Positions 13,084 through 62,021 are shown, numbered from the stretch's first letter. The stretch: 64,000 nt of DNA from Candidatus Magasanikiibacteriota bacterium (GCA_018650645.1 JABIFP010000025.1:7976-71975); one strand, 5' to 3'. Made by a program: numbers and translations. The notes: generated by a model from the letters alone, not told the origin.

Positions 13084-13153
13084 CATGATGCAAATGTACA
13101 ATAATACACTTGCATCATGGACCGTTCAACTCCTTTTTCCCCATGATGAACGG

Positions 13154-13549
13154 TCAGGCAACGCGCTTTACTTGCGCGCGGACAATTGTTGTACCTTCTG
13201 ATGCCTGCAGCAGATCCGTTCCGCTCGGCGCAATGAAGTACACTGCACCATTGTCGAATTGAATCTTCACAGCAGCCACCCCCCGATCAAGAAGCACCGG
13301 CCCGTGTGCAGGATTGTCTTCCTTTCTGTGAGCCTCCCAACTCACGGTGAGACAATGTACCCCCGCATCCGCCCTGAAATTAGGCATCGTGCCAAGCAGG
13401 TGATCGGGTCCCGACACGCAGACAGCGTTGAATGCCCTTGGACTGTCAGTCAACATCAGAATCCGCGCACTGACAGCAAGGTAAATTCCAGAGAACCCAC
13501 TTGCCGTAAACATGCGTCCGCTGCTGCGAATGAGCTCTGCATACGTCAT
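13154..13549 (-). CDS. hypothetical protein encoded in a GC-rich island
   Basis: A 131-aa ORF. Local GC is ~55% against ~40% in the flanks. A strong RBS aaaggagaacacaATG precedes the ATG at 13549. No recognisable domain. Confidence 0.5.
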   Translation of the reverse strand: MTYAELIRSSGRMFTASGFSGIYLAVSARILMLTDSPRAFNAVCVSGPDHLLGTMPNFRADAGVHCLTVSWEAHRKEDNPAHGPVLLDRGVAAVKIQFDNGAVYFIAPSGTDLLQASEGTTIVRAQVKRVA

Positions 13550-13677
13550 TGTGTTCTCCTTTCCCATGCATATAAGCATATATATGCCCCTACGTCAATC
13601 TGCTGAACACCAAAACTATTCACAATTGTTCAATAAAATGGTCAAGTGGTATACTCATTCCACTTAATCAATTTCTT

Positions 13678-14538
13678 ATGCCAAGACCCGAAACGCTCCA
13701 GTCGCTTATCTATGTAGATGGCAGCGATCTATCAGAAACAGCACAGATGATGGATGCCCTTGGATTTGTTGATGGTCAAACAACCAACCCAAGTAATTTT
13801 GTAAAAGCGCTGAAAAAAGAGCTTGGAACAGAAGATATTACCTTTTCTAAGGAAGAACTACTGGCTACATACAAAACTCGCGTAGAAGAAATTTCAAAGG
13901 CGCTGCCAAACGGCTCAGTATCTGTTGAAGTGTATGCAGATAAAGATACAACGGCGGCAGACATGATTACCCAAGGAACAGAAATGTATAGTTGGATTCC
14001 AAACGCACATATTAAGCTCCCCATTACCGCAGCAGGATTGGAAGCGGCAGAACATTTTGTGGCAAACGGCATGCGTGTAAATATGACACTTTGCTTTACC
14101 CAAGAACAAGCTGCAGCCGTATTTGCAGCAACAAAAGGCGCAAAACGCGGTGACGTCTATATTTCTCCTTTTATTGGCAGAGTAAATGATAAAGGGCTGA
14201 ATGGTATGGATATTGTAAGTAACATTGTCCGCATGTATAAACAGGCCGATGATCATGTCATGATTTTAGCAGCGAGTATTAGAGACGCTAACCAGCTGGC
14301 AGAGGCAATAGCAGTAGGATCTGACATTACAACAAGCTATCTGAAAGCAATATTAGAATGGAATGAGCAAGGCATGCCCGTAAATGACCCATCTACCTAT
14401 TCACATCCTGATTTAGCGCCTATTGCGTATAAAGAAATCGATCTATCTGAAGACTGGCGAAGTTATGACATCTCTCACCCAATGACGGATGATGGATTAG
14501 TGCGATTTGCGCAGGACTGGAACGCGCTCATAGCATAA
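13678..14538 (+). CDS. tal: transaldolase
   Basis: A DGQTTNPS motif and a Schiff-base Lys in HIKLPIT, on a TIM-barrel transaldolase/Fsa-family layout. Confidence 0.85.
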   Translation: MPRPETLQSLIYVDGSDLSETAQMMDALGFVDGQTTNPSNFVKALKKELGTEDITFSKEELLATYKTRVEEISKALPNGSVSVEVYADKDTTAADMITQGTEMYSWIPNAHIKLPITAAGLEAAEHFVANGMRVNMTLCFTQEQAAAVFAATKGAKRGDVYISPFIGRVNDKGLNGMDIVSNIVRMYKQADDHVMILAASIRDANQLAEAIAVGSDITTSYLKAILEWNEQGMPVNDPSTYSHPDLAPIAYKEIDLSEDWRSYDISHPMTDDGLVRFAQDWNALIA

Positions 14539-14593
14539 AGGGATACTTCTCTGCAGCTGGCACACGCAAGCTGCATAATAATTTTCTCTTTAT

Positions 14594-15286
14594 ATGAAAA
14601 CCTGGATTGTTTATATTTTTGCGTTTATTGGAGCCGCTCTTATTCTTACATCAATTGGAAATGCGATAAGTATTCAGCTGTTTAATCAAGATGCCGTTCC
14701 CGCGACAGGAGAAGTCGTGGAACTTCTTGAAACAGAAGGCGAAGAATACTACCTGTACGCGCCGGTAATTGAATACACGACCGCTGAAGGAGAACTAATC
14801 ACCTATTCACATAGCAGCTACACATATCCATCAAGCTATGCCATTGGAGAAACGGTACCAATGCTCTATAAAGCCAGTAAGCCGAGTAAAGCTCGTATAG
14901 ATAGTCCGACTGAAGAATGGTTTCTGGTTGGATTCATGTTTTTTATGGGCCTCCTCTTTGCCGTATTTGGATTTGCACTTCCAGTGTATAAACGATACAG
15001 AAAACGAGTTGGACAAAAGCTTAAAGAGACAGGAACTTCTGTGCAAGCAAAAATTATTGGCCTAGAAAAAAATCGAGCCATTGTTATTCAAGGCAAAAGT
15101 CCATTCCGTATTTTGGCGCAATACCACAACACACAAACAAATACTGTTTATGATTATACGAGCGACAACATTTGGTGGGACCCTACCGAATTTGTAAAAG
15201 AAGGAGCGCTTGTAACTGTATATGTAGACAGAAATAATCCAAAAAAACATTCTATGGATCTATCATTTTTACCTAAGCATAGCTAA
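14594..15286 (+). CDS. membrane protein, DUF3592-like (hypothetical)
   Basis: An N-terminal TM and a central TM flank a predicted beta-rich segment. No catalytic motifs. Confidence 0.45.
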   Translation: MKTWIVYIFAFIGAALILTSIGNAISIQLFNQDAVPATGEVVELLETEGEEYYLYAPVIEYTTAEGELITYSHSSYTYPSSYAIGETVPMLYKASKPSKARIDSPTEEWFLVGFMFFMGLLFAVFGFALPVYKRYRKRVGQKLKETGTSVQAKIIGLEKNRAIVIQGKSPFRILAQYHNTQTNTVYDYTSDNIWWDPTEFVKEGALVTVYVDRNNPKKHSMDLSFLPKHS

Positions 15287-15303
15287 TAATTAATAGCACT
15301 CGT

Positions 15304-21987: not shown

Positions 21988-24921
21988 CTATTGGTAATTA
22001 ATCGTCACATCTTGAAGGACCGGTGTGTGATCTCCATCTGAACTTAATGTGGCACGGTATTGCAGCCACTGCGATTGGTTCAAATCGGTATCAAGTAATT
22101 GCAAGGCATTGTCACTAAACGTTGTTGCAGCTCCTCCACTTCCATACCATGCAGACCAAACTCCAGGGCTTCCACCACTATCGTCAGCAGTTCGTAACTC
22201 AATTTCTATGTCACAGGCTGGTGCGCAACTCGGAATCGATTCGTTCCATGAAATCATCTGCACAGCAGCATTTTTTCCCATATCAAATGCAGAACTTGTT
22301 AGTGTTCCAGATACTTCATATCCACCAGCTACCTGCTCTCCATTTCCCCACTCAATAGACACACTATCTAGCTGTACTTGTACCGTTCCATCACTTTCCA
22401 AATTTGCGCGGAACAAAAATTGCCCACTAGAGGTTGGGAATGATGAAAAATTATCGTGAATATCTGTGGCTATTGAATAATCAGACGCCCCAGCTGCGGC
22501 CCAGGCTGCACCAGTCCAGTAATACCACGATGTACCATTATTATCTGATACCTGATAGTAAATTTCACCTGTATTTTTTGTTGCTACTTCTGTAAAGCCA
22601 ACATAGTTTCCTAATCCGCTGACAGCTAAAAATGATGACGGGGTAATTGTTGGTACCGTATCAGGATATGACGCAGCTCCAGCAGAAACGCCAATTGTAG
22701 TCACATACCCATCATTCCCCGTTCCACTATATACAATGGCAATCATACTATTAGAAAGAATATATGCCATTGGATCAATTCCCTGCGTAGCATCAAACTC
22801 CTCTGAATCGATAAATGCCGCAGGTAGTGTTCCGTTATCTTCAATTGTGAGTAGTGCCAAAATACCATTATTAGTAGCATCCTCATACACTAAGGCATAA
22901 GTGGTTCCATCAAACGGGTACAGCTTCATCTCATATGCGCCACTCGTCTCAAACTCCCAAGAATCTACAATCGCATTAGTAATATCTCCCGCGGCATCAA
23001 TTTCAACTGTAGTTATAGTTCCATCATTTCCGGCCCCTTCATATGAAATTGCATAAATATCGCCACTAATTGGAATAAGATTAGGCGTATTAGCTGAGCT
23101 TGTATCAAATTCTAATGAATCGATAATACTATTCGTAATATTTCCACTTGTATCGATATCAACGGTTACTAGCCAGCCATCACTTCCAGCCCCTTGATAC
23201 GCAATTGCATATATGTCTCCTGAAATTGCTGTAATTGATGGATATTTTCCACTTGCGGTATCATATTCATATGAATCTACCTCTGTGATGGCTCCCGCAC
23301 CATTAACCGAAAATGTTTGTATAAATCCATCGCTCTTGTTTCCTTCATAAACGACTGCAAATACTCCATTGGCCAGCTCAATAAGAGAAGAAAATCGTCC
23401 ACTCTTATTATCAAATTCTGTTGAATCAATCACTGCCCCAATATTCCCAGCAGCATCAATATCTACGGTGACTGCATACCCGTCATTTTTATCTCCCGAA
23501 TAGGTGATCAAGTAGTTGTCTCCGGAAACATGTATTATCTCTACCTCTTTTCCCTGCTTTGTATCAAATTCATAAGTATCAATCACAGCACCACCAATAT
23601 CTCCCGCAGCGTCAACTGATACTGTTTTAATAAAACCATCGTTTCCTGATCCTGTGTATGCAATCGCAAAAATGTCATTTCCCAATGACAAAACATATGG
23701 CATGGTGGTGTTACTTGTATCAAATTCAAATGTTTCTGTTACTGCACCATTGATATCTGAGCCGCCACCACCTGCTGATACGAGTTGTGCCTGACCACCA
23801 GTCACTTCAATATCCGCTGCATTAAAGGTGTAACTTGTTGATGCAGAAAATGGCCACTGATACTGATTTCCACATCGAATACTGATCTCATCAAGAAGCA
23901 CATCATGCGTTCCGTCACTGGAAAGGAATGCCTGAAAAGAAATCCGCCCACTTGAAGTTGTAAATGACCCGATATTTGTATTTATATCTGCCGCTGTATT
24001 ATAGTCTGCTCCGCCAGCGGCTCCCCAAGCAGCTCCCGTCCAATATTCCCAGTTGGATCCATTATCACTTGAAATTTGATAATAAATTTCTCCGGCATTT
24101 TTTGTAGCAGTTTCAGAAAACTGCGTCCACTCATCTACATCTCCAGTTACAATAAAATCTACTAATGGTGCAATTGCAGGCTCATCATTTGGATAATTTG
24201 TGTCCCCTGGCCCAGCAGGAATAAGTACAGCTTCCCCTCCAGTTATTTCAATATCATCACTATCAAATGAGTAGCTTGTTGAAGCCGTAAAGCTCCATGA
24301 TTTTGTTCCACACTGTTCATTTAGTCGATTTAATTGCAATTGCCCTCCGGTAGTTACATCTACATCTCCTGAATCGCTATCATACGCTGCCGTGTCAGCC
24401 CAAATTGCTTGCCCGTCGCCGCTAGACCAATCTGTTTGCGTCCAATTGTCTGACTGCCAATTTGTGAGTAGTACTGATCTGTTTACTGCAAGCGATCTTC
24501 CTGCAATTGTCGTTCTTGTCACCGCAATCGTAGCCATGTGTGATGACATATCAACCGTTCCCGCAGGGCAGGTCACAATCACATCGGTTCCATCTCTACA
24601 TACATCAGTAAACGTAATTGTCCTTGTAAATTCTCCGATTGTTTCACTTGTTCCCTCTCCGCTTAGCGTCCACGCTCCTGTTGAAGAAGTGACCGCAGAC
24701 TGAGAATACGTAAATTCATTTACCGCCCTATCACGAATTGCTCTTACAGCCTCAACGCCTTCTTGAGCGAGATGTTCAGCAGTGATTCTATGCTTAGCCA
24801 CAATACTCGATTCATGCGCAAGGCTAATTGTGCTTATAAACATAAGCGCAAAGATAGCAAAAAGAGCCACAGCGAGTATGATCTCCATTATGCTAAATCC
24901 TTCCTTGCGCAACCTTTGCAT
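21988..24921 (-). CDS. giant pilin-like protein (977 aa): prepilin-type N-terminus, ~7-blade beta-propeller repeat region and three Asp-box-containing modules. Putative pilus-tip adhesin.
   Basis: N-terminus KEGFSIMEIILAVALFAIFAL. About seven tandem ~50-aa repeats with the pattern (I/V)DSxEFDT..G.....ISGD.YAI.Y.G.GNDG...TV.ID..G. Three ~80-aa modules with S-x-D-x-G-x-x-W (e.g. ISSDNGSNWEYWTGAAW). Confidence 0.85.
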   Translation of the reverse strand: MQRLRKEGFSIMEIILAVALFAIFALMFISTISLAHESSIVAKHRITAEHLAQEGVEAVRAIRDRAVNEFTYSQSAVTSSTGAWTLSGEGTSETIGEFTRTITFTDVCRDGTDVIVTCPAGTVDMSSHMATIAVTRTTIAGRSLAVNRSVLLTNWQSDNWTQTDWSSGDGQAIWADTAAYDSDSGDVDVTTGGQLQLNRLNEQCGTKSWSFTASTSYSFDSDDIEITGGEAVLIPAGPGDTNYPNDEPAIAPLVDFIVTGDVDEWTQFSETATKNAGEIYYQISSDNGSNWEYWTGAAWGAAGGADYNTAADINTNIGSFTTSSGRISFQAFLSSDGTHDVLLDEISIRCGNQYQWPFSASTSYTFNAADIEVTGGQAQLVSAGGGGSDINGAVTETFEFDTSNTTMPYVLSLGNDIFAIAYTGSGNDGFIKTVSVDAAGDIGGAVIDTYEFDTKQGKEVEIIHVSGDNYLITYSGDKNDGYAVTVDIDAAGNIGAVIDSTEFDNKSGRFSSLIELANGVFAVVYEGNKSDGFIQTFSVNGAGAITEVDSYEYDTASGKYPSITAISGDIYAIAYQGAGSDGWLVTVDIDTSGNITNSIIDSLEFDTSSANTPNLIPISGDIYAISYEGAGNDGTITTVEIDAAGDITNAIVDSWEFETSGAYEMKLYPFDGTTYALVYEDATNNGILALLTIEDNGTLPAAFIDSEEFDATQGIDPMAYILSNSMIAIVYSGTGNDGYVTTIGVSAGAASYPDTVPTITPSSFLAVSGLGNYVGFTEVATKNTGEIYYQVSDNNGTSWYYWTGAAWAAAGASDYSIATDIHDNFSSFPTSSGQFLFRANLESDGTVQVQLDSVSIEWGNGEQVAGGYEVSGTLTSSAFDMGKNAAVQMISWNESIPSCAPACDIEIELRTADDSGGSPGVWSAWYGSGGAATTFSDNALQLLDTDLNQSQWLQYRATLSSDGDHTPVLQDVTINYQ
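22700..23790 (-). repeat. coding tandem repeats (~7 x ~150 nt) encoding propeller-blade-like units inside the giant pilin gene
   Basis: Periodicity seen in the translated protein (aa ~380-740). The repeats have diverged at nucleotide level. Confidence 0.55.
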
Positions 24922-29825: not shown

Positions 29826-29973
29826 ACACGAGGTTCTTTTTGAAATATACGATGACTCAAGTATACCTTGGCTGGGCAAAAAAAAGAACTCGCGCATATT
29901 GACAGAGAGCAAAAGCTATGCTACGTTGCGTGAAGAACACTAACTGCCGCAACGCGGCTAAGGGAGGACGGCC

Positions 29974-30579
29974 ATGGGAAGGCCAAAGAAGAAGGATGCG
30001 TGGTGCAAGACCCGGTACGGGCGGATTGGCCGCCTGATGGCCGATCCGGAAACTACTCATGACCAGAGACTGTTCCTGTTGCAGCTCGAAGAGTACCTGT
30101 CGATGAACGTCGATCAGGCACTCGATATCCTCGAGTGGCGCGGTGAAGCGCACGTCATCACCTCGCGACTTCACGGCATGGTCGACGGCATCGACCCGAT
30201 CGCTGCCAGGCATGGGCTGAAGCTGCCGTTCACTGCGGAGGGCGAGGGCGTGAACACCACCTGGACGTGGATCGAGTGGCAGATGATCACGCCGATGGAC
30301 CTGTTCTGGCGGAGAACGGGGAAAGGGAACGCCCCTCTACTCCTTCAGCTACAGGAGGGAGGCAACCCCGAACAAATTGCGTGCGCGCTCTACAAATATC
30401 CCAAAGGTACCAAAATGGTGGGTTGGACACCGACTGATCTGCGCGAAGCTGCCGCAGATGCAATCGAGGCACTTTTGCAGACGGCCGAACGTGCGGGTCT
30501 CGGCAACGTCATTCAGACATCGACTGCCGACGGCGAACCCTACTACCGCTGGGTCGGCCCCCAGATCCCGCCCGCCTAG
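29974..30579 (+). CDS. hypothetical protein encoded in a GC-rich island
   Basis: A 201-aa ORF in a ~60% GC segment. A strong RBS taagggaggacggccATG precedes it. No recognisable domain. Confidence 0.5.
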   Translation: MGRPKKKDAWCKTRYGRIGRLMADPETTHDQRLFLLQLEEYLSMNVDQALDILEWRGEAHVITSRLHGMVDGIDPIAARHGLKLPFTAEGEGVNTTWTWIEWQMITPMDLFWRRTGKGNAPLLLQLQEGGNPEQIACALYKYPKGTKMVGWTPTDLREAAADAIEALLQTAERAGLGNVIQTSTADGEPYYRWVGPQIPPA

Positions 30580-30702
30580 CCCACACTCAAAGGGCGCGAC
30601 AAGAGACTACCGAGTAGCCCGGTTCCTGGCTACAACCGATTGCGGGGCGCACGTCGCCCCCAATCACTTTACTACGGCATATACTGCCTTTTTATTTTAC
30701 AA

Positions 30703-42123: not shown

Positions 42124-42142
42124 TCACTCTCTACTGGCATCA

Positions 42143-42168: not shown

Positions 42169-42226
42169 ATACGCAATATCCGCCAAAGCCATAGCGTAGG
42201 AGGACCCAAAGATATCCCCAATCCTC

Positions 42227-43592: not shown

Positions 43593-43608
43593 ACACTCCG
43601 CACATACA

Positions 43609-43637
43609 AAACTCGCCTCAATAGGCGAGTTTTGTTA
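43609..43637 (+). terminator. rho-independent terminator after rplK
   Basis: aaactcgcct caat aggcgagttttgtt. Confidence 0.75.
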
Positions 43638-43668
43638 TACTTGTGATATATTTTTCTTCGCATAGCAT

Positions 43669-44610: not shown

Positions 44611-45470
44611 AATACCTGAAATACACCGCACTGTTTGCTAGTCTTTTGCTGGTGTTTGGATTTGGATGCTCATCAAAGACGCCCGCAGAAACACGCGTTG
44701 CGCAAAATGATGACATTGTTTCAAGCACGCCAATGCAAGAAGCATATTTGTTTTGTACAACACAAGGATACTCGGTTCACATTGAACGTTCTGCGGAATC
44801 TTTAAGTGGACATGTGTATTGTCAGTTTGACGAGGCGCGCAGTTGCCCAGCATTTGAATTCCTTTCTGGCGATTGTGATGTAGAAAATGCTGACGGTCAA
44901 TTACCAGCAGAAACAGCCGCAATTATTGATGAATCAGATCTTTCTATTTCTACTGGGCCAAGATTTTGCCCATCCGTTGCGGAACCGGTGTGTGGAGAAG
45001 ACAGCCGCACGTATGTAAATGATTGTGTAGCAGAACTGCAAGGCGTAGAAATTATTCATGAAGGTGCTTGTGAAAATCCGGTGATTTTAGACGACCCGGC
45101 ATCAGAAACTGACGCATCCGGAAGAAAAAGACGAACAGTTCGGAGTACAAATACATCCAGAAAGACTTCTAGCGGCAGTTCTTCATCAGGATCAACCAGC
45201 CAGTCTACTGACCGAGAGGTCACTCCTGAATCCCCAGATTGGATTGATAGCTTAATTGCTTTACTCCGAGCTGATGCGTCACTCAGCACGGCATCTATTG
45301 ATAGCTGCAAAGCTGGAAGCCGTACGTATTACCTGCAACGAGGAAATTTCTCTGCGCTGTACGATACACGAGGGCAAGTAATTTGTTACCCTGGTAGAGA
45401 CGTGCATGACACATGTCCGGAAAGTTACCGAGATGGCGAATTCAGGTGTCAGGAGATTTGGAAAAAATAG
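44607..45470 (+). CDS. lipoprotein with a DUF333 domain and a Kazal-type protease-inhibitor-like domain
   Basis: Lipobox VFGFGCSS. DUF333-like FCTTQGYS...YCQFDEARSC..EF.SGDC. Kazal signature EPVCGEDSRTYVNDC...EGAC. Translationally coupled to ldh (ATGA overlap). Confidence 0.6.
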   Translation: MKYLKYTALFASLLLVFGFGCSSKTPAETRVAQNDDIVSSTPMQEAYLFCTTQGYSVHIERSAESLSGHVYCQFDEARSCPAFEFLSGDCDVENADGQLPAETAAIIDESDLSISTGPRFCPSVAEPVCGEDSRTYVNDCVAELQGVEIIHEGACENPVILDDPASETDASGRKRRTVRSTNTSRKTSSGSSSSGSTSQSTDREVTPESPDWIDSLIALLRADASLSTASIDSCKAGSRTYYLQRGNFSALYDTRGQVICYPGRDVHDTCPESYRDGEFRCQEIWKK

Positions 45471-45482
45471 CATACAAAAGAA

Positions 45483-45512
45483 AAGAATCGCCAATGGCGA
45501 TTCTTTTTATAT
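45483..45512. terminator. bidirectional rho-independent terminator
   Basis: agaatcgcc aat ggcgattct then ttttat, with an A-rich stretch before it. Confidence 0.7.
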
Positions 45513-45601
45513 ACAAAAAAGCCGCACCAAGGTAACGAGCTTTCTCGTCCGCTTGTGTGCGGCGGTGCACGCGGTTGCATGCGTCCCTCCTTGTTGTGTG
45601 G

Positions 45602-45928
45602 TCAGCCCGGGGGGCCGATGATGATGATCTTGGGAGCAAAGCCGAACCTCTGTCCCGGGTGTCCCAGGATGACTCCACGACTGCCTTCCAAGGTGTCTTG
45701 GACAAACCAGCTCTTGGGGTCACGAAGCTCAAGCTCGCTGACACCCCAGTTCAAGATCAGACCGGTAGCCCCCTCTTCGACCCAATCAAGCCGCTGCTGG
45801 TGCCACGTACTCACATCCTCCGGCGGATAGTAGCGATTCGTGACAAGATCAATGCCAACATGTATCCCGCCATGACGGAAACATACCGTGCCCCCTACGA
45901 AGCGCTTCAACATCTCGAGTGTAACCAT
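45602..45928 (-). CDS. hypothetical protein, GC-rich island (strand assignment uncertain)
   Basis: A 108-aa ORF in tandem (12-nt gap) with the 45940-46299 ORF. The overlapping plus-strand ORF 45557..45958 cannot be excluded. Confidence 0.3.
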   Translation of the reverse strand: MVTLEMLKRFVGGTVCFRHGGIHVGIDLVTNRYYPPEDVSTWHQQRLDWVEEGATGLILNWGVSELELRDPKSWFVQDTLEGSRGVILGHPGQRFGFAPKIIIIGPPG

Positions 45929-45939
45929 CTACCCCTCCT

Positions 45940-46299
45940 CTACTGGTATTCGCACTGATCTCGCAGCGCTTGCCACTGAGTAAACGGCGGTTTCCAGATC
46001 TGGATACGCCGTACGACCAACCGTTTGAGATGGTCTGCGTCGTCCAGCTCGATTCTTCCGCCCTGCTCATGCAGCTTGCAAGAATCCATCAGGATATACG
46101 AGCCGTAGCGATCCGTGGCGACCCGCACAACTCGATACACCCGCACCTCAGCACTAAAAGCCTCTGTCCGAACCGAGACAAAATCCCCGATCTGGAGCAG
46201 GCTCAGCGCAGCGCTCAGTGCGGGCACCGAATCCGGCCGCTGCTGCGCAGAGGCGGTAACCGTCAGCAGAAGAGACACCAAAATCCACAGAACCTTCAT
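45940..46299 (-). CDS. secreted hypothetical protein, GC-rich island
   Basis: A signal peptide MKVLWILVSLLLTVTASAQQ. A strong RBS ctgggaggtcaatATG. Confidence 0.45.
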   Translation of the reverse strand: MKVLWILVSLLLTVTASAQQRPDSVPALSAALSLLQIGDFVSVRTEAFSAEVRVYRVVRVATDRYGSYILMDSCKLHEQGGRIELDDADHLKRLVVRRIQIWKPPFTQWQALRDQCEYQ

Positions 46300-46382
46300 A
46301 TTGACCTCCCAGTCAGTTTTTGCGATATCTGCTCTAGTTGTAGCATACATTCCCAAATATTTCAATACCAGCGCCCCTCATA

Positions 46383-46412
46383 TTGACAAAATCGCCATAA
46401 TATAATAGTATA
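46383..46412 (+). promoter_or_regulatory. putative promoter upstream of rplA (TTGACA ... TAGTAT / TATAAT)
   Basis: catATTGACAaaatcgccataaTATAATagtat. The spacing to TATAAT is short (12 nt), and 18 nt to TAGTAT. Confidence 0.3.
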
Positions 46413-46474
46413 CGCCCACTTAATACATGTGGGACTTCCGTCTAGGAAGGCTATCACCACGTAACCCTATTGCT

Positions 46475-47155
46475 ATGAGCAAGAGAATGAACGAAGCAAA
46501 CGCACAAGTTGAAGCAATTCGCGTATACTCACTTACTGAAGCTGTAGAACTTGTAAAGAAAACAAGCACAGTAAAGTTTGATGCTTCTGTAGAAGTACAT
46601 GTACGACTTGGAATCAACACCAAAAAAGGTGACCAACAAGTACGATCAACTGTGGTTCTTCCACACGGAACAGGAAAAACGAAACGCGTTGCAGCATTTG
46701 TTGCACCGAATGATGAAGAAGCTGCAAAAGCAGCAGGAGCGGACTTGGTACTTGGAGAAGAAGAAATCAAGACATTAAAAACAACAGGAAAAATCGATTT
46801 TGATGTAGCCGTTGCTACACCAGAAATGATGCCAAAGATTGCAGTAGCAGCAAGAGTGCTTGGACCCCGTGGTCTTATGCCAAATCCAAAAACTGATACT
46901 GTAGGAAAAGATTTTGCAAAAATGATTGGTGACCTGAAAAAAGGAAAAGCTGCATTTAAAAATGATGACACAGCAAATGTGCATCAGCTCGTTGGAAAAG
47001 TAAGTTTTTCTGAAGAGCAACTTGTAGAAAACATCACCGCATTCATGGATGCACTGAAAAAAGTAAAACCAGCAACAATGAAAGGAGTTTACTTCAAGTC
47101 ACTCACACTTACGAGTGCTATGGGACCTGGAGTAAAATTCTCTGTAGACGCGTAA
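46475..47155 (+). CDS. rplA: 50S ribosomal protein L1
   Basis: N-terminal MSKRMNEANAQVEAIRVYSLTEAVELVK..., a central DFDVAVATPEMMPKI segment and C-terminal GVYFKSLTLTSAMGPGVKF match L1 over 226 aa. ATG at 46475 in the track ORF frame. Confidence 0.95.
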   Translation: MSKRMNEANAQVEAIRVYSLTEAVELVKKTSTVKFDASVEVHVRLGINTKKGDQQVRSTVVLPHGTGKTKRVAAFVAPNDEEAAKAAGADLVLGEEEIKTLKTTGKIDFDVAVATPEMMPKIAVAARVLGPRGLMPNPKTDTVGKDFAKMIGDLKKGKAAFKNDDTANVHQLVGKVSFSEEQLVENITAFMDALKKVKPATMKGVYFKSLTLTSAMGPGVKFSVDA

Positions 47156-47170
47156 TACCGTTTACAAACA

Positions 47171-47200
47171 AAAACAGCGCATACATGCGCTGTTTTTGTT
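47171..47200. terminator. rho-independent terminator after rplA (copy 1 of a duplicated hairpin)
   Basis: aaaaacagcgcat acat gcgctgtttttgttttt. Confidence 0.8.
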
Positions 47201-47263
47201 TTTCTCCAACGCAGCTAAGAAGCGTTGTTGGGGTTTGTGGTGCCTCTACCCGATCTGACTCCT

Positions 47264-47554
47264 TCAGGTCTCTGCGTCTTGAGGCGAGATAGAATACACG
47301 GAAACACCAATTCCCTCTTTCTGAATCTTCTGCGCGTCCACCAACTCCTCAAGCGCAAACCTGACAGCTGCCAAATTACATGCTGGCAGCGCAGCAAGAA
47401 TTGCTGCGGAAGCAAGAGGCCTCTCACTGCGCTCGAGAACCCTGAGTACGCGTTGACGCACCCTATGCCCAGCCCAGCTTGTCATGGCACCAAACAGCAA
47501 GAACAGCAGCATGACCCCAGCCATCACATACATGATCATGAATATCCCACCCAT
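47264..47554 (-). CDS. small hypothetical membrane / winged-helix-like protein, GC-rich island
   Basis: An N-terminal TM (MGGIFMIMYVMAGVMLLFLLFGAM) followed by a helical segment. The start is ambiguous (ATG at 47554 or TTG at 47596) and there is no clear RBS. Confidence 0.3.
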   Translation of the reverse strand: MGGIFMIMYVMAGVMLLFLLFGAMTSWAGHRVRQRVLRVLERSERPLASAAILAALPACNLAAVRFALEELVDAQKIQKEGIGVSVYSISPQDAET

Positions 47555-47632
47555 TTTGTACTGGCTGAAATTACCAAATGCAGAAGGTATTGTCAATGCT
47601 ACCCACTATCCCGAGTGAATCTAACGAAAACA

Positions 47633-47664
47633 AAAACAGCGCATGTATGCGCTGTTTTTGTTTT
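47633..47664. terminator. rho-independent terminator after rpsA (minus strand; copy 2, inverted, of the same hairpin)
   Basis: aaaaacagcgcat gtat gcgctgtttttgtttt is the exact reverse complement of the 47171-47200 element. Confidence 0.75.
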
Positions 47665-47672: not shown

Positions 47673-48950
47673 TTACTCAGCAGCTTCTTCTTTTGCCTCT
47701 TCTTCCTTAGGAGCCTCCTCTACCTTTGGCGCTTCTTCCGCCTTAGGTGATTCTTCTTCCTTAGGTTCTTCTTCAACTTTTGGCTCCTCTTCTTTTGGTG
47801 CCTCTTCTACCTTAGGTTCTTCTGCTTTTGGCGCTTCTTCAGTAGACTTTTCAGCCTTCTTCTTAAGTCCACCAAGGCGAAGTCCCAATCGGTGCTCTGC
47901 AGCATCAATGTTGAGAATTTCAAATGTTGTTTTTTGTCCAAGAGTGAACATATCTTCAAGTTCTTTCACGTCGCGAATTGCTCGGTTTGAAACTTCAGAA
48001 ATGTGCGCAAGCCCATGAATATCTTCATCAAGCTTTACCATCAAACCAAATGGTTCGATTTTGTGGATTTCTCCTTCCACTTCTTGTCCAATTTTGTATG
48101 TTTCTTTCACACTCTTCCATGGATCGTCTACAAGACGCTTCATTGAAAGATAGATTTTTGATTTGTTGAGATCAATAATTTGCGCTTTTACGTTGTCACC
48201 AACCTTGAGCACATCTTTTGGATGATCAATTCGTTGCCAAACAATCTCTGAGATATGGATAAGTCCTTCAAGACCTTGTCCAAATTTCATGAACGCACCA
48301 AAACTGGTAAGCGCACTGATTTGTCCTTCAACAATATCTCCAATAGAGTATGAGTCAAGTACCGCTTTTTGATCGTCTTCCCAAACAGCCTTTTCTGACA
48401 CAATCAATTTTTCATCTTGTTCGTTGAGGTCAAGAACTTTTACATCCATTCCCATTCCAACAAAACTGCGGAGGTGTTCTAAAATACGATTTTTGTCACC
48501 ACCTTGTACACGAGGGTAATGTTCTGGAGCAAGTTGACTTACTGGCATAAATCCTACCAATGCGTCTACCTTGATCATCAAACCACCCTTGTTGGCAGCA
48601 ATAACTTTTCCTTTCACAACAAGTTCATCATCACAATACTTTTGCATTGTTTTCCAAACGCGTTGTTGTCCAGCAATACGGAATGATAATTCCATTTCAC
48701 CAGTTTCGTTTTCTTGTTCAACTACTGTTGCTTCAACAGCGTCTCCAACGTTAATGTCAGAATATTCACTTGATTCTGAAAACAGTTCATATCCACGGAC
48801 AAGTCCAGTGATAAGTCCATTTACATCAAGTCGAACGGCTCCGTTATCAATAGAGATAACTGTTCCGCTTACCAACTCTCCAACCTTTGGAAGTTGTGCA
48901 AAATAATCTTCTAACAGCGTTGCAAAGTCGCTTTGTGTTGTATTTGCCAT
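47673..48950 (-). CDS. rpsA: 30S ribosomal protein S1 (four S1 domains) with a C-terminal (E/A/P/K) repeat tail
   Basis: Four S1 repeats (e.g. GQEVEGEIHKIEPFGLMVKL). The tail is EEAPKAEEPKVEEAPKEEEPKVEEEPKEEESPKAEEAPKVEEAPKEEEAKEEAAE. Confidence 0.9.
   Translation of the reverse strand: MANTTQSDFATLLEDYFAQLPKVGELVSGTVISIDNGAVRLDVNGLITGLVRGYELFSESSEYSDINVGDAVEATVVEQENETGEMELSFRIAGQQRVWKTMQKYCDDELVVKGKVIAANKGGLMIKVDALVGFMPVSQLAPEHYPRVQGGDKNRILEHLRSFVGMGMDVKVLDLNEQDEKLIVSEKAVWEDDQKAVLDSYSIGDIVEGQISALTSFGAFMKFGQGLEGLIHISEIVWQRIDHPKDVLKVGDNVKAQIIDLNKSKIYLSMKRLVDDPWKSVKETYKIGQEVEGEIHKIEPFGLMVKLDEDIHGLAHISEVSNRAIRDVKELEDMFTLGQKTTFEILNIDAAEHRLGLRLGGLKKKAEKSTEEAPKAEEPKVEEAPKEEEPKVEEEPKEEESPKAEEAPKVEEAPKEEEAKEEAAE
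47690..47860 (-). repeat. in-frame nucleotide tandem repeats (~15-27 nt units) encoding the EAPK/EEPKV tail of S1
   Basis: Recurring cttcttc..ttagg..cttcttc..cctttgg units on the plus strand. Confidence 0.5.
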
Positions 48951-56937: not shown

Positions 56938-56996
56938 CGTATTGACGAGAGGCCCTATGTGTGGTTGTATGACCAGGAATCAAAAGGGGTACATTC

Positions 56997-57839
56997 ATGA
57001 AAATACGATTTGATGCAGGAGTCAGCCGAATTGTTGGCTGGAAGGTTGATCCGAGAGGGGAGAAAATTCCCCAATCTCAGCAAGACAGCTTCATTGTCAG
57101 CGAGAAGCTCGGTCTGTTCGTTGTCTTTGACGGCGTGGGTGGGCATGCAGGCGGAGAAGTTGCCAGCGCCATGGCGGCGACGCTTTTGGAAGAGAGCTTC
57201 ACGCTGCTGATACAAGTACTTGAGGTGGAAGCAGCACAGCGCGAACCCTACCGAATCCAATCGGAGATAGAAGCTGCGCTCAGGCGGGCCAGTAGAGCAA
57301 TCTACCACGCCGGCCGCAGAGATCCTGCGCTTGATTACATGGCCACCACAGTCAGCGGCGTCTTCTTCTACGAAGGAACCGCCTACTACTTCAACGTCGG
57401 CGACAGCCGCTGCTACAGGGAGCAAAACGGCGAGTTTGAGCAGATGACGCGGGATCACTCCTATGTGGCTGACCAGCTCTATGAGGGACTCATCACCGCA
57501 GAAGAGGCGCGAAACCACCCAGATCGAGGTGGGATGCACGCGGCACTTGGATTCCGCGACATTTCCGATTATGTCGATGTCCGCTACACACCCTCGCAGC
57601 CCGGCGACGGCTGGATCATCTGCACGGACGGCCTGGTGGACTACGCCGACCCGGACCGATGGGAAGTTGTAGCGTCTTCCCAACTACGCCGTGGCATCTG
57701 CACCGACGAGATCGCTACGACGCTGACCAACCTGACCACCGCAGAAGCCGGTATTCCACTGGGGTCTTTCCCCGGCGAGTACTACGACTACAACAGGTGC
57801 GACAACACCACGGTGATTGCACTGCGCATTTGCCGATGA
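56997..57839 (+). CDS. PP2C-family (PPM) serine/threonine protein phosphatase, GC-rich island
   Basis: VVFDGVGGHAGGEVAS, NVGDSR, TDGL and DNTTV motifs. ~62% GC. RBS aaaaggggtacattcATG. Confidence 0.8.
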   Translation: MKIRFDAGVSRIVGWKVDPRGEKIPQSQQDSFIVSEKLGLFVVFDGVGGHAGGEVASAMAATLLEESFTLLIQVLEVEAAQREPYRIQSEIEAALRRASRAIYHAGRRDPALDYMATTVSGVFFYEGTAYYFNVGDSRCYREQNGEFEQMTRDHSYVADQLYEGLITAEEARNHPDRGGMHAALGFRDISDYVDVRYTPSQPGDGWIICTDGLVDYADPDRWEVVASSQLRRGICTDEIATTLTNLTTAEAGIPLGSFPGEYYDYNRCDNTTVIALRICR

Positions 57840-57865
57840 ACAACCGAGGAGACGACAAAAAAACG

Positions 57866-57897
57866 ACCGGGGCTAGGGGCCCGGTCGTATTTTTTTT
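57866..57897. terminator. GC-rich rho-independent terminator after the PP2C gene; also downstream of valS
   Basis: acgaccgggg ctagggg cccggtcgt then attttttttg. Confidence 0.7.
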
Positions 57898-57899
57898 GC

Positions 57900-60794
57900 T
57901 TACTTTGTGACACTAATGTGCAATCTTTCTCCATTCAATACTTCTTCTTCAGCATCTGCGTCACCAAGCGTAATACTGTCTGCTAATACCGCAGAGGCAA
58001 AAGCATCTTTATATGTATCTACAACCTCTTGCACCATTGCGCTTTCCGTTTGCACCGTCACGTGCACACGCGCGTCTCTTGTTAATCCCTGCGCTTTTCT
58101 TTTTCCATTCACACTTCTAATTAACTCCCGGAGTAGTCCCTCTTTTTTCAATTCTTCAGTCATAGTAAGGTCGAGAGCAACATGCATATCAACTTCTTCG
58201 CGGATTTCCCAACCTGATTGCAATTCAGTAGCATGCGCTACTTTTTTTACATTTAACTCCTCAGCAATAATCGATTCGTAGGCAGTATCAAGCGCTTCCC
58301 CTGTGTATACAAATTGCCCAAGCGGCTGACGCACTTTTACTTTTGCATCTTTTCTTAATGACAATCCATACTCAACCATTTTTCTAACACGAGTCATCTG
58401 CAGTAATGCCGCAGAATCGACTTTTGGCATTTCGTTAGGCCAACGTTCCAAATGGACGCTTTCCGCTTCATCTTCGGCATGCACTTTCTGCCATACTTGC
58501 TCAGCAATAAAGGGTGTGAATGGCGCCATGAGTACGGCAAGTCGTTTCAATACTGTTTCAAGTGTCCCTAAACATGCTGCAGCATCTGCTTTATCACTTC
58601 CCTTCATGCGGTCTCTACTTCTTCGCACATACCACTGAGAAAGATCTAAAATGAAATCCATAATTGGCCGACTCGCTTCCGCCAAGCGGTACGCATCCAT
58701 CTCTGTTGTTACAGTAACCGTAAGCTCATCAAGTCGCGTAATAATCCATGCATCTAACACATGCGTAGAATCTGCTGCCGGAGTAATCTCTCCTGCAAAC
58801 AGTTCATAAAACACAACAACATTGGAAAGTGTATTCACTACTTTGTTAAATACTTCTCGTACTCCAACCTCAGAAAAACTCAAGTTTTCTGCAGAAACAA
58901 TCGGAGAAGACATCAAATAATAACGCAGTGCATCTGCTCCATATTTTTCTAGTACTCCCATTGGGTCTGGATAGTTTCGCAATTTTTTACTCATCTTTTT
59001 TCCATCTTCCGCCAAAGCAATACCGTTAACAATCACGTTTTCATATGCCGGCGTTCCTTTGATGGCCGTAGAAAGGACATGCAAGTAGTAAAACCACGCA
59101 CGTGTTTGATCATCTCCCTCTGCAATAAACTTAGCCGGAAATCCAGCTTCAAATTTTTCTTCATTTTCAAATGGATAATGCACCTGTGCATATGGCATGG
59201 ATCCAGAATCGAACCAAGTATCCAATACATCTGGAATACGTTTCATTTCTCCACCACAATCACATGCAAATACTACCTCATCTACAATATGTTTATGCAA
59301 GTCATCCACTTTTACTCCAGAAGCTGCTTCAAGCTCTGCAATAGATCCCATGACTTTACGTTCACACTTTTCAGGATTCTCTGTGCACTCCCAAACAGGC
59401 ATCACAGATGCCCAAAATCGCTGTCTTGAAATTGACCAGTCGCGTGCACCTGCTAACCAATTACCAAACCGTCCTTCTTTCATGTGTGAAGGAGACCAAT
59501 TGATTTTTTTTGCTTGTTCTAACGCATCTGCTTTTACTTTCGTCACCGCAACAAACCAACTACTCGTTGCGTAGTTTATAAGTGGCGTATCACAACGCCA
59601 ACAATGCGGATAACTATGTTCGTATTTCTTTTTGCTAAATAATTTTCCGTTATGTGCTAGCCATTTAATGATTTCAATATCCGTTTTCATGTGATCATCT
59701 TGCGGCTTCACATGCATGCCAGCAAAATCCGTTACATCATCTGTAAATCTTCCATTCATTTTTACATGCTGAATAAATGGCACGTTTTCTTGTTTGAAAA
59801 CTTCGTAATCATCCGTTCCAAATGCCGGTGCAAGATGTACCAGTCCAGTTCCGTCTTCTGTAGTGACAAAATCAGCTGTCACCACGCGAAATGAATTTTC
59901 TGAGTCTGCAAAATATGGGAACAGTGGTTCATACACCATACCAACCAAATCTGATCCGCTCGCATGCCCCATAACTTCAAATTCTTTTCCTTCAAAATTT
60001 TTCATTACCAAATCTTTGGCAACAATATAATGTGCATCTTCTAATTTCACCACCGCATATTCAACATCTGCCCCAACGGCTATGAGCACATTCCCCGGAA
60101 GCGTCCACGGTGTCGTTGTCCACGCTAAAAAGTAAATATCACCCTCAATATCTTGCAGTGCTTCTTTTTTATCAACCACTTTAAACTGCGCCGTTACAGA
60201 TAAATCTTTTACATCTTTATATCCTTCAGAAACTTCCTGCTGAGAAAGCGTGGTCTCACACCGCGGACAGATATGCATTGGCTTATAGCCTTTGTAAATC
60301 AAATCTTTTTCCCAAAGCTGCTTAAACACCCACCAAATCGATTCCATATATGGTGTATCCATGGTTCGGTAAGCGTTTTTCATATCCACCCAACGCCCAA
60401 GTCGAGTTACGACTTTTTCCCAATCATCAACATAACTCAAAATTTTTGTTCGGCACTTTTCATTAAAAACATCCACACCAAGTTCTTCAATTTCTTGTTT
60501 ACTTTTTGTGCCGAGTTCTTTTTCTACAATATTTTCAATTGGTAATCCGTGACAATCCCAACCCCAAACACGTTCAACTCTGTGTCCTTTCATTGTTTGG
60601 TATCTTGGCACCACATCTTTCATCACAGACCCAACAATGTGGCCATAATGTGGCAATCCTGTCGCAAACGGTGGCCCATCATAAAAAACATACGGTTTAT
60701 CTGCTGGCCGCTCACTTACTGATCTATTAAATACATCTTTGTCCTTCCAATATTTTAGGACATCGAGTTCATGTTCTTGAGGATTGTATGGCAT
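57900..60794 (-). CDS. valS: valine--tRNA ligase
   Basis: HIGH-region PFATGLPHYGH, KMSKKLRN, an editing domain and a C-terminal coiled coil. Probable start MPYNPQEHE at 60794; the track ORF extends to 60899 through the leader. Confidence 0.95.
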   Translation of the reverse strand: MPYNPQEHELDVLKYWKDKDVFNRSVSERPADKPYVFYDGPPFATGLPHYGHIVGSVMKDVVPRYQTMKGHRVERVWGWDCHGLPIENIVEKELGTKSKQEIEELGVDVFNEKCRTKILSYVDDWEKVVTRLGRWVDMKNAYRTMDTPYMESIWWVFKQLWEKDLIYKGYKPMHICPRCETTLSQQEVSEGYKDVKDLSVTAQFKVVDKKEALQDIEGDIYFLAWTTTPWTLPGNVLIAVGADVEYAVVKLEDAHYIVAKDLVMKNFEGKEFEVMGHASGSDLVGMVYEPLFPYFADSENSFRVVTADFVTTEDGTGLVHLAPAFGTDDYEVFKQENVPFIQHVKMNGRFTDDVTDFAGMHVKPQDDHMKTDIEIIKWLAHNGKLFSKKKYEHSYPHCWRCDTPLINYATSSWFVAVTKVKADALEQAKKINWSPSHMKEGRFGNWLAGARDWSISRQRFWASVMPVWECTENPEKCERKVMGSIAELEAASGVKVDDLHKHIVDEVVFACDCGGEMKRIPDVLDTWFDSGSMPYAQVHYPFENEEKFEAGFPAKFIAEGDDQTRAWFYYLHVLSTAIKGTPAYENVIVNGIALAEDGKKMSKKLRNYPDPMGVLEKYGADALRYYLMSSPIVSAENLSFSEVGVREVFNKVVNTLSNVVVFYELFAGEITPAADSTHVLDAWIITRLDELTVTVTTEMDAYRLAEASRPIMDFILDLSQWYVRRSRDRMKGSDKADAAACLGTLETVLKRLAVLMAPFTPFIAEQVWQKVHAEDEAESVHLERWPNEMPKVDSAALLQMTRVRKMVEYGLSLRKDAKVKVRQPLGQFVYTGEALDTAYESIIAEELNVKKVAHATELQSGWEIREEVDMHVALDLTMTEELKKEGLLRELIRSVNGKRKAQGLTRDARVHVTVQTESAMVQEVVDTYKDAFASAVLADSITLGDADAEEEVLNGERLHISVTK

Positions 60795-61000
60795 AGGAAA
60801 AATAAAAAAAACACCTGTAAAATGAGGACTCCATTGGAGCGGTACCACCTCAATTCCACACGTGTGGCGCTTGATTACAGCTGTACTGGGCTTACCCATG
60901 GGATTCTACTTGGCTGTTTGCCGTTCTTTCCCTTGCGCATCGATTCGATTCCCGGTTGATTGCCGGTATGGCGCTTGTTTTTATTGTGGATTTACTATAG
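60795..61000 (-). promoter_or_regulatory. putative T-box riboswitch leader of valS
   Basis: The minus strand reads AATTGAGGTGGTACCGCT, ~45 nt upstream of the start (T-box consensus AATTAGGGTGGNACCGCG). Downstream is ...ACAGGTGTTTTTTTT. Upstream is a TTGACT-N16-TATAGT promoter. Confidence 0.5.
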
Positions 61001-61054
61001 CAGATGCAAGTTATTAGTCAAGAACAAACACCTCTATATATAGTATGTATTAAA

Positions 61055-61098
61055 AAAGGCGCCGCCGGGTGATCCCCGGTCGACGCCATGTTCTTGGT
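61055..61098 (-). terminator. GC-rich rho-independent terminator for the minus-strand island gene
   Basis: Minus strand: ggcgtcgaccgggg atcac cccggcggcgcc then ttttttaat. Confidence 0.5.
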
Positions 61099-61111
61099 TC
61101 CCCCCGAATGG

Positions 61112-61888
61112 TCAGCTCAGATGACCTGCTTGCTGAAGCAGCGTCACTAGAGCCTTGGGATCCACGGCAAGCTTGGCAAGCTCGCTCTCTGCGCGAAGCC
61201 GCTGCACTTGTAGCTCACCAGCCTCAATAGCGGTGGCGAGCGCCTCTTTCCTGGCATGCGAGAGGGCCTTCTCCGCCTGACGCTCCCCTTCCGTCCGCTT
61301 CATGGACTGCAGTTCATCATAGGCGCGACCACACTCAGCCTGAGCAGCCTCATACGCGGTGACAGCGCTCTGAAGAGTACGCTGGAGCTGACGCACCTCA
61401 CCAGCGTGAATCTCCACACCCGCCTGATGAGCCAATAGAAGTTGTTCAGCCTCAGCCATCGGTGTCATGCCGCCGACGAGTAGTCCGCTGACCATGCCGA
61501 TCTCACTCTCGACCTGCGCTCGCTCTGTTTGGTGCCCGCGTAGGTTCTTCTTCGCCACCGCCAGCTCGTACCCGTCCCCCACAACGGCGGCCAGCCTGTC
61601 GCGAAGCGCTGATGGCTTCATCCCTTTCAGCGATAGCTTGAGCTCCGTTCGCGTGGAGTTGTTGCCCGGCTGCACCGTGACCGTCACGCCGCTCGAGTCG
61701 ATATCCCCGATCTTGGCGTTCTGGAGACCCTTGGTGTGTCCCGTACCTCTCGGCATCCCGCTCGTAAGCTTCACCGATAGCTCCCCTGCGAGCTGAGCAA
61801 GCTCGGCCCACTCGCGAAGAATCCTCTCCAAGAGCCTCTTGAGCTTTGAGTCGGGATCATGCCCCTTAAACTCAATTTGCAAACTCAT
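61112..61888 (-). CDS. hypothetical coiled-coil protein, GC-rich island
   Basis: A 258-aa ORF, ~62% GC, whose C-terminal half is Ala/Glu/Gln-rich heptad-like sequence. No recognisable domain. Confidence 0.5.
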   Translation of the reverse strand: MSLQIEFKGHDPDSKLKRLLERILREWAELAQLAGELSVKLTSGMPRGTGHTKGLQNAKIGDIDSSGVTVTVQPGNNSTRTELKLSLKGMKPSALRDRLAAVVGDGYELAVAKKNLRGHQTERAQVESEIGMVSGLLVGGMTPMAEAEQLLLAHQAGVEIHAGEVRQLQRTLQSAVTAYEAAQAECGRAYDELQSMKRTEGERQAEKALSHARKEALATAIEAGELQVQRLRAESELAKLAVDPKALVTLLQQAGHLS

Positions 61889-62021
61889 CCTTTACTCTAC
61901 TTTCAACCACGGTAGTAAAGATGTGGTCCCTCACTAATACCACTTTTATTACCAAATAGTCAAGCCTCCTTGCCCCTCCGCGCCTACCTGCTATAATGGC
62001 TACACATATATAAAAGACTCT

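Follow-up and report, generated by a model that had tools for sequence, protein, structure and literature searches.

How do genes that look as if they came from a GC-rich bacterium come to stand in a reduced, AT-rich chromosome that starts translation in another way, and do they persist there? The question is raised by a stretch of 64,000 nucleotides from a Candidatus Magasanikiibacteriota bacterium (GCA_018650645.1, JABIFP010000025.1:7976-71975; henceforth the window, to whose first letter all positions refer unless another locus is named). In it, eight GC-rich islands, numbered from left to right (Table 1), carry genes that are mostly led by Shine-Dalgarno (SD) sequences, within a chromosome of about 40% GC whose other genes lack them. 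An earlier note, made from the sequence alone, had read the islands as repeated recent horizontal acquisitions, conceivably from a high-GC host, or else as an assembly or construct chimera. Our analysis favours another reading, which we hold to be moderately probable: the islands would be inserted accessory genes that have native-type promoters and in which codon and initiation signals of a foreign style are actively maintained. The core genes are AT-rich (GC at third codon positions, GC3, ~0.32), mostly TAA-ended and translated from starts without SD. On this reading, some 11 gene-sized cassettes would have entered by insertion from one or more GC-rich sources (~57-66% GC), gathered at operon-boundary hotspots and been fitted with native-type promoters; and the testable cassettes would have been held for a long time in a GC-rich, SD-dependent state, i.e., a separate equilibrium and not a decaying relic.

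Composition and translation signals of the islands

A sliding GC profile with threshold segmentation recovered all eight segments that the earlier note had set against a background of ~40% GC. They have 51-61% GC (z = 3.4-6.6 against native 400-bp windows, which have a mean GC of 0.412, sd 0.030 and maximum 0.51; n = 132) and together occupy 12% of the window (7.8 kb). Of these segments, two turned out to be paired GC-rich blocks of open reading frames (ORFs) around AT-rich spacers (~39210-39350 and 40941-41220), and AT-rich spacers part the island units both from each other and from native genes. The real unit is therefore a single ORF plus its ribosome-binding site, in most cases followed by a GC-rich hairpin terminator, and there are about 11 such ORFs in total. 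A scan of the window with Rfam found no family, so that the GC peaks cannot be due to RNA genes.

Codon usage, too, separates island from native genes. GC3 is 0.55-0.83 in island ORFs and ~0.32 in native ones, and the pooled GC of first, second and third codon positions (GC1/2/3) is 0.618/0.446/0.674 in islands against 0.542/0.376/0.324 in native genes. TGA is the stop codon of 7 out of 11 island genes (64%) and of 6 out of 49 native genes (12%; p = 0.001). Lysine is encoded by AAG in 76% of cases in islands, whereas native genes use AAA in 73%; for isoleucine the preferred codons are ATC (58%) and ATT (71%), respectively, and leucine and glycine codon preferences are likewise unlike the native ones. 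The proportion of Gly, Ala, Arg and Pro residues (GARP) is 0.24-0.34 in island proteins and 0.23 in native ones. The pooled island values of GC1/2/3 are mutually consistent with an equilibrium genome of ~57-66% GC and carry no signature of amelioration (i.e., GC3 lagging behind GC1 and GC2); the regression coefficients used here are reportedly those of the amelioration model for horizontally acquired genes by Lawrence and Ochman (1997). The window is exceptionally loaded with such genes: GC-rich outliers make up ~15-18% of its ORFs (9-11 of ~61), whereas their share is 2.8% and 0.8% in two sets, each of 80 related loci, so that the unusual density stressed by the earlier note stands.

The earlier note had also stated that every island ORF has a strong SD and that native genes have none. 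The contrast is real, with an SD in 8 out of 11 island genes (6 strong, 2 moderate) and in 1 out of 51 native genes (Fisher p = 4e-7), and the native half of the claim held up, as 50 of the 51 lack even a 4-nt SD core ahead of the first ATG; "every" was an overstatement, however, given that the signal is weak or absent in 3 of the 11. ORF calls and start sites are heuristic throughout. The same contrast was found across the clade in 1.4 Mb around NusG from 80 species, where native ORFs (n = 1124) had an SD-like motif in 11% of cases (11.6% in an internal control) while 37 GC-rich outlier ORFs had it in 62% (control 30%; p = 8e-13). Native genes were again SD-poor in an IleRS set of 0.87 Mb from 80 more distant metagenomic relatives (at most 60% identity) among the matches listed. 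A crude signal-peptide heuristic gave no clear enrichment in the GC-rich ORFs of relatives.

It is an established principle that SD-independent initiation requires an unstructured start region. Predicted folding energies per 60 nt are -6.9 kcal/mol at native starts, -19.1 in island interiors and -10.3 at island starts. Because the GC-rich island mRNAs are predicted to be far more structured than native ones, they would depend on SD pairing for initiation, and such a dependence would keep the island SDs under purifying selection.

The islands seem to be domesticated for transcription, not for translation. Strong promoter-like sites of the form TTGACA-N17-TAnnnT lie in the AT-rich spacers ahead of island genes, in the same style as those ahead of secE, rplA, trmB and ileS, and the promoter blocks ahead of the genes at 38170 and 41308 are 80% identical over 35 nt. 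These sites suggest that native-type promoters transcribe the island genes. The GC-rich hairpin terminators that the earlier note had assigned to five islands were likewise found, three by a scan (at islands 4a, 4b and 7; Table 1) and three more by eye (30642-30661, 39290-39330 and 61062-61090).

Insertion, inheritance and proposed maintenance

The window belongs to an organism whose NusG has its top relatives (at most 84% identity) in metagenome-assembled genomes of Candidatus Magasanikbacteria, followed by Uhrbacteria, Buchananbacteria and other Patescibacteria. Its native gene set is typical of the candidate phyla radiation (CPR) and includes RF1, PrmC, sensor kinases, oxidative pentose-phosphate genes, type IV pilus PilB/PilC with pilins, FtsW, GyrB/GyrA, SecE-NusG-L11 and IleRS; no rRNA and no rpsU were found within the window or the fetched loci. 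Exact copies of the window's proteins (MBT4153755-786, locus tags HOE53_03840-03995) occur on contigs as long as 614 kb. Across the junctions of islands 3-8, 15 contigs from 13 other samples (ENA, Logan and JGI) match the window at 99.99-100%, and island genes are also carried by contigs of 407-614 kb. Since the same junctions recur in independent assemblies, chimerism is excluded for islands 3-8, contrary to what the earlier note had entertained. The junction alignment covers these islands; island 2 lies outside all fetched contigs, and the gene of island 1 is called on one further contig of 603 kb (L178) that is not part of the alignment. For these two, chimerism is very unlikely. Contigs of the same species differ by only 3 single-nucleotide polymorphisms in 127 kb aligned, meaning that the population is clonal across samples and that the polymorphisms are too few for polarising the direction of mutation.

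Comparison with sister genomes supported the earlier note's claim that genes of foreign composition had been inserted. Around NusG the clade shares the gene order FtsW, hypothetical, GyrB, [gap], SecE, NusG, L11, (Mdh, Kazal-like), [gap], L1. Between GyrB and SecE, 66 relatives have gaps of 94-5449 bp; 23 of these gaps are shorter than 400 bp (e.g., L015 with 156 bp and L018 with 185 bp), and 15 contain a GC-rich stretch. In the window this gap is 5.1 kb long and holds islands 3 and 4 together with TrmB and CM_2, which are accessory genes of native composition. The L11-L1 interval has a GC-rich 300-bp stretch in 5 out of 52 relatives; for two of the five, L017 and L029, this stretch falls between Kazal and L1, the place that island 5 occupies in the window. 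At the third site, in locus L098 of a more distant relative (IleRS 60% identical; among the matches listed), IleRS stands ~100 bp from AAA_28 with just a terminator between them and no PP2C gene, i.e., the site is empty. No homologue of islands 3-6 was found within 10 kb of NusG in 80 relatives, and the hotspot cargo of relatives is unrelated to that of the window; among the relatives themselves it is mostly unrelated as well.

Some islands are also flanked by repeats. Island 6 lies between two copies of a 37-nt palindromic terminator (47166-47202 and 47628-47664; 95% identical as direct and 100% complementary as inverted copies, with scores of 31-37 against a null maximum of 10), and island 2 is flanked by a 16-nt direct repeat (AAAAAAAGAAC[T/C]CGCG at 29879 and 30701; score 13 against a shuffle maximum of 10). 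Islands 3a and 3b are jointly bracketed by a perfect 13-nt repeat (TATGCTATAGATA at 38127 and 40079; above the shuffle maximum) that duplicates the -10 region ahead of CM_2, which suggests that they landed between CM_2 and its promoter. A marginal 11-nt repeat flanks island 7. The empty sites, the different cargo in the same gaps and the repeats support the reading that the islands are true insertions, by which a reduced CPR genome gained genes of foreign composition.

Whether such insertions are recent can be addressed with island 7. In locus L091 a PP2C protein (P0003) that is 55% identical to that of the window stands in the same arrangement, AAA_28-PP2C-IleRS, and both its promoter block (ATTGAC[A/G]...TGTRTGGTTGTAT) and its terminator (ACGACCGGGG...CCCGGTCGT) are recognisably conserved between the two loci. 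Since locus, promoter and terminator are all shared, the two genes are orthologues by descent, and island 7 is old and vertically inherited. The L091 copy is nonetheless GC-rich (GC 0.618, GC3 0.785) and has an SD (GGAGGGAGG), whereas the neighbouring IleRS gene of L091 has 41.7% GC and a GC3 of 0.34. At four-fold degenerate sites of conserved residues, the IleRS pair (67-69% identical in amino acids between window and L091) is 45% identical where composition alone predicts 30%, and the PP2C pair is 41% identical where it predicts 31%; GC at four-fold sites is 0.65 and 0.83 in the PP2C genes and 0.36 in both IleRS genes. In other words, synonymous sites have turned over almost completely while both PP2C copies stayed GC-rich with an SD, which indicates that their compositional equilibrium differs from that of their neighbours.

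Two further syntenic pairs behave alike. Between L073 and L079, NusG is 97% identical and the island protein 49% (island genes 46-49% and flanks 76-97% in amino-acid identity); between L016 and L039 the values are 88% and 43%. Each of the six genes in these three pairs has retained its SD. For these orthologue pairs, as judged at the sites compared, the GC-rich codon style is shown not to be the decaying remnant of a recent transfer. Gene-specific selection on translation or mRNA properties would be the likeliest cause of the GC-rich equilibrium.

The islands provide a clean natural case of acquired genes that do not drift towards the composition of their host, and their retained GC-richness challenges the use of GC or codon deviation as a clock of transfer age. 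Conservation of the SD on one gene class in an otherwise SD-less lineage implies that the ribosome must still read SDs, and makes one ask whether CPR bacteria have conditional translation that is gated by the SD. The island proteins, without family-level match in many cases and several of them secreted, are plausible players in the host interaction of these uncultured epibionts.

Several findings weigh against this reading. The case for maintenance is built on three pairs, in which each island gene offers 45-84 four-fold sites, and on ORFs that were called heuristically. GC-rich outliers are rare around IleRS (5 of 640 ORFs among the matches listed), so the pattern is uneven. The three island proteins searched in large collections yielded no donor, meaning that foreign origin rests on composition and presence or absence, not on phylogeny. 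Flanking repeats are clear for only three islands (2, 3 and 6), differ in length (16, 13 and 37 nt) and, apart from the marginal one at island 7, are missing at the rest. Finally, scans of island proteins with Pfam, PHROG, NCBIfam and PADLOC revealed no integrase, transposase or phage protein at any island, and no tRNA lies at any island or elsewhere in the window.

Competing explanations and known systems

One extension of the favoured reading, which we put forward as tentative, is that Magasanikbacteria and their relatives may have two expression dialects in one small genome, with the GC-rich, SD-dependent, TGA-terminated accessory set, several secreted proteins and lipoproteins among it, kept by selection as a separately gated translational regulon. 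Reading of the second dialect might, e.g., be confined to ribosomes whose anti-SD is exposed, or to certain tRNA or RNase conditions, such as those of host attachment or starvation. That the island signals are tuned to a GC-rich host cell is far less likely.

The view closest to that of the earlier note, namely that the islands are recent, unameliorated transfers out of a high-GC host (e.g., an actinobacterium), with GC content and SD as transient relics of the donor, now seems unlikely. The codon-position GC of the islands does look fresh from a genome of ~57-66% GC, most islands are absent from every relative examined, and the organism has genes for type IV pili, which are often linked to DNA uptake in CPR. 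This view is already contradicted for island 7, whose PP2C gene has a collinear orthologue in a lineage near four-fold saturation and is still GC-rich with an SD, and the two other orthologue pairs with their conserved SDs tell against it in the same way. Nor can a donor lineage be named. Searches of large collections covered three of the 11 island proteins: the FGE-like protein (39350-40036), the 41308 lipoprotein and PP2C. Among 5.8 billion clusters the FGE-like protein matched only itself below E 1e-5, and an exhaustive HMMER search of 1.84 billion representatives with the 41308 lipoprotein, whose gene would be expected to be the freshest because it has the highest GC3 (0.83), returned only its own 72-aa fragment; these two genes thus have no homologue in 15 billion proteins, the same metagenomes included. 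For PP2C, the single homologue above 41% identity was the syntenic CPR orthologue P0003. Matches outside the lineage, including the nearest from non-CPR organisms, were generic and at most 41% identical, and the one whose locus was examined (P0008, 39%) has the order priA-def-fmt-rsmB-rlmN-stp-prkC, which we take to be Firmicutes-type. The earlier note's impression of a cargo typical of Actinobacteria or another high-GC host therefore finds no backing in these searches. As for the remaining eight island proteins, those tested had no family-model match, and their 90% clusters hold members of the same species only.

The main rival to active maintenance is that recurrent re-acquisition or gene conversion from an external GC-rich pool (a co-evolving host or a mobile element) refreshes the copies at fixed hotspots, so that they would be old and fresh at once. 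We regard this as quite unlikely. It would account for the different GC-rich cargo that different species have in the same intergenic gaps, for the much faster divergence of island genes than of their flanks in the L073/L079 pair, and for the position of island 6 between duplicated palindromic terminators. Against it stands a total lack of external homologues for the three proteins searched, and viral-contig scans with two island proteins were negative, as were those with PHROGs apart from the helix-turn-helix (HTH) protein. Moreover, the PP2C promoter and terminator are conserved by descent in both lineages, and the population is clonal across samples.

Still less probable is an endogenous origin, in which native or de novo genes were made GC-rich locally, e.g., by GC-biased gene conversion at recombination hotspots. 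A composition apparently at equilibrium and the failure to find donors fit this explanation. By contrast, the GC-rich blocks have sharp boundaries that coincide with ORF, SD and terminator while promoters 50-250 bp away are AT-rich, and the population has nearly no diversity to recombine, both of which make GC-biased conversion unlikely; in addition, amino-acid composition is shifted as well (see GARP above) and the empty sites in relatives show insertion. An assembly, binning or construct chimera, finally, has nothing in its favour beyond the compositional contrast itself and can be dismissed for islands 3-8 (and is very unlikely for the other two), given the junctions shared by other samples and the orthologous PP2C junction in a different species.

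Among known systems, horizontally acquired genomic islets resemble the islands in their atypical composition and codons, presence or absence among relatives, intergenic hotspots and accessory cargo without database matches. The islands here differ in being single genes without mobility genes, GC-richer than the host (acquired DNA is usually AT-richer), without a donor found, and, in three orthologue pairs, unameliorated despite near-saturated synonymous divergence. Such islets are known; the twists here are the GC-rich direction, the single-gene grain, the lack of database matches, the conserved SD in an SD-less genome and the non-amelioration. Streamlined genomes such as those of Prochlorococcus and SAR11 have integration hotspots or hypervariable regions, and conserved flanks (GyrB|SecE, L11|L1 and AAA_28|IleRS) likewise bracket lineage-specific cargo here, although that cargo has a uniform foreign translational signature and is at least in part stably inherited, without rapid turnover. 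In Patescibacteria, the accessible part of one study (PMC12455944) reports genomic islands and attributes up to 13% of genome length to horizontal transfer, mostly from Patescibacteria to Patescibacteria and with divergences that suggest old events; a GC-rich, SD-bearing class is not described in that part of the study. In the literature searched, a GC-rich, SD-bearing gene class in SD-less CPR lineages was found nowhere described.

The nearest functional analogy is the SD-blind translation of Bacteroidia, whose ribosomes ignore SDs and in which rpsU is the lone strong-SD gene, with bS21 autoregulation in Flavobacterium (PMC7797042, PMC13000453). In both cases ordinary genes are SD-less while a small special set keeps strong, conserved SDs, implying two initiation regimes per cell; the set consists of one core, autoregulated gene there and of many accessory, GC-rich genes here.

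Integron cassettes and clusters of attC sites lacking integron-integrases (CALINs) share with the islands small ORFs, an own ribosome-binding site and 3' hairpin, mostly unknown function and a composition unlike that of the host, whereas the cassettes here are dispersed, have a promoter-like site each and lack attC-like motif pairs. An integron cassette origin was rejected as no RYYYAAC...GTTRRRY end-motif pair was found within 150 bp of any island (10 pairs in the whole window, 12.4 expected); no integron integrase was found in the scanned ORFs. A prophage or mobile remnant was likewise rejected, PHROGs giving only weak HTH matches (38170) and a weak kinase-family match (FGE-like protein, E 5e-4), and PADLOC gave no defence-system match beyond the weak HTH. 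The idea that 39350-40036 is the target of a diversity-generating retroelement was discarded as well, as there is no repeat of at least 30 nt there; no reverse-transcriptase domain was seen in the scanned ORFs or in the public Pfam marks of the region.

Individual islands and their surroundings

The island cargo is accessory: besides secreted proteins and lipoproteins there are a PP2C phosphatase, a protein with an HTH and one with a coiled coil (Table 1). No family model of phages, defence or mobility is matched by any of it. The 38170 protein matches Pfam HTH_31/HTH_3 at E ~1e-3 and NCBIfam aMBF1 at 5e-7, the island 3b protein matches PF03781 at 2.6e-11 and the island 7 protein matches PP2C_2 at 1e-14. 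The island 1 protein has no Pfam, PHROG, NCBIfam or PADLOC match. AlphaFold2 without alignments gave a pLDDT of 38.6 for the island 2 protein (29974) and of 38 for the 41308 protein. Promoter-like sites were noted by eye upstream of island 2 (TTGACA-17-TACGTT) and, in AT-rich DNA, upstream of island 3a (a TTGACA site at 38108-38136).

Table 1. GC-rich islands of the window and associated signals. Start signals are given with the position of the start; z is relative to native 400-bp windows.
Feature	Position	Strand	ORF and product	SD	GC	GC3
Island 1	13140-13560	-	13154-13549, 131 aa from SD-led ATG; between YceI and transaldolase	strong, 13549 AAGGAG	0.549 (z = 4.5)	0.56
Island 2	29930-30660	+	29974-30579, 201 aa, no family match	strong, 29974 GGGAGG	0.610 (z = 6.6)	0.73
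Island 3a	38150-39260	+	38170-39210, 346 aa; weak XRE-type helix-turn-helix, residues 147-199	moderate, 38170 AGAGGT	0.562 (island 3)	0.55
Island 3b	39300-40050	-	39350-40036, 228 aa; secreted, FGE-sulfatase/SUMF1-like domain	strong, 40036 GGGAGG		0.74
Island 4a	40445-40940	-	40494-40928, 144 aa, lipoprotein (LAGGVAGC); terminator 40450-40467, common to native CM_2 gene	strong, 40928 GGAGGGG	0.570 (island 4)	0.73
AT-rich spacer	40941-41221		divergent native-type promoter-like sites for islands 4a and 4b
Promoter-like site	41008-40980	-	TTGACA-17-TACACT
Promoter-like site	41043-41071	+	TTGACA-17-TATAGT, 11/12 matches
Island 4b	41222-42197	+	41308-42123, 271 aa, lipoprotein; GC-rich terminator 42142-42161	moderate, 41308 GGAG		0.83 (highest of islands)
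Island 5	45510-46340	-	tandem ORFs 45940-46299 (119 aa, signal peptide) and 45602-45928 (108 aa); Kazal-L1 gap	strong, 46299 GGGAGGT; strong, 45928 GAGGAGGGG	0.566	0.63 and 0.66
Island 6	47166-47664 (GC-rich 47205-47620)	-	small membrane ORF 47264-47596 or 47264-47554	weak/absent, 47264-47596	0.514	
Island 7	56950-57900	+	56997-57839, 280 aa, PP2C-type Ser/Thr phosphatase; bidirectional GC-rich terminator 57863-57888	weak/absent, 56997 AAGGGG	0.568	
Island 8	61055-61900	-	61112-61888, 258 aa, coiled-coil; upstream of IleRS promoter and leader	weak/absent, 61888 TAAAGG	0.604 (z = 6.4)	0.68

In islands 4a and 4b the public gene calls of same-species contigs, 40479-41105 (+) and 41221-41754 (-), run opposite to the SD-led ORFs, and SD, lipoprotein signal and higher GC3 all lie on the strand opposite to those calls. 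Because public callers take the wrong strand in at least these two islands, the two proteins are largely missing from protein databases.

Beyond the window, a further GC-rich block lies ~3.2-3.9 kb to the left of its start (L178 3541-4254; 0.60-0.62 GC; called ORF of 237 aa), and no GC-rich island was found in the 9 kb to its right, where a tyrosine recombinase with Phage_integrase domains (L179 18635-19648, ~7.1 kb right of the window) has native composition, adjoins a methyltransferase gene and could be either Xer or part of a mobile element. Hotspot cargo can be large: in a relative labelled Nomurabacteria the GyrB-SecE gap holds a 4.4-kb GC-rich island (L017 5018-9385; 0.61 versus 0.45) with a 1008-aa protein (GC3 0.76) that, by eye alone, resembles a class A penicillin-binding protein. 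For TrmB (37235-38023) and CM_2 (40114-40440), in the same gap of the window, inspection of 40 relatives showed no match within 10 kb of NusG.

At the position of island 8, L091 has an unrelated GC-rich ORF (4434-4673; GC 0.53). The ~200 nt upstream of IleRS (window 60800-61005, L091 4131-4336) are conserved despite near-saturated synonymous sites, which suggests a structured, perhaps T-box-like, leader, although Rfam gave no family for it even at E = 1.

Between rplK (L11) and rplA (L1), which are usually neighbours, Magasanikbacteria have genes for malate/lactate dehydrogenase and a Kazal-like secreted protein as well as variable cargo (43167-47155), the gap being 7-200 bp in many more distant relatives and 1-4 kb in the clade of the window (relatives L011-L090). 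An ORF at 21988-24921 (-), which encodes 977 aa without a Pfam match and contains an internal repeat of ~156 nt, stands among pilin-like genes and PilB/PilC, and its product may be a pilus-associated adhesin. Lastly, the 3' end of the S1 gene (47686-47840) contains tandem 15- and 18-nt units that encode a low-complexity acidic, lysine-rich tail, and a repeat akin to it occurs at 2311-2484, within the ORF 1988-2500 (public call: L31).

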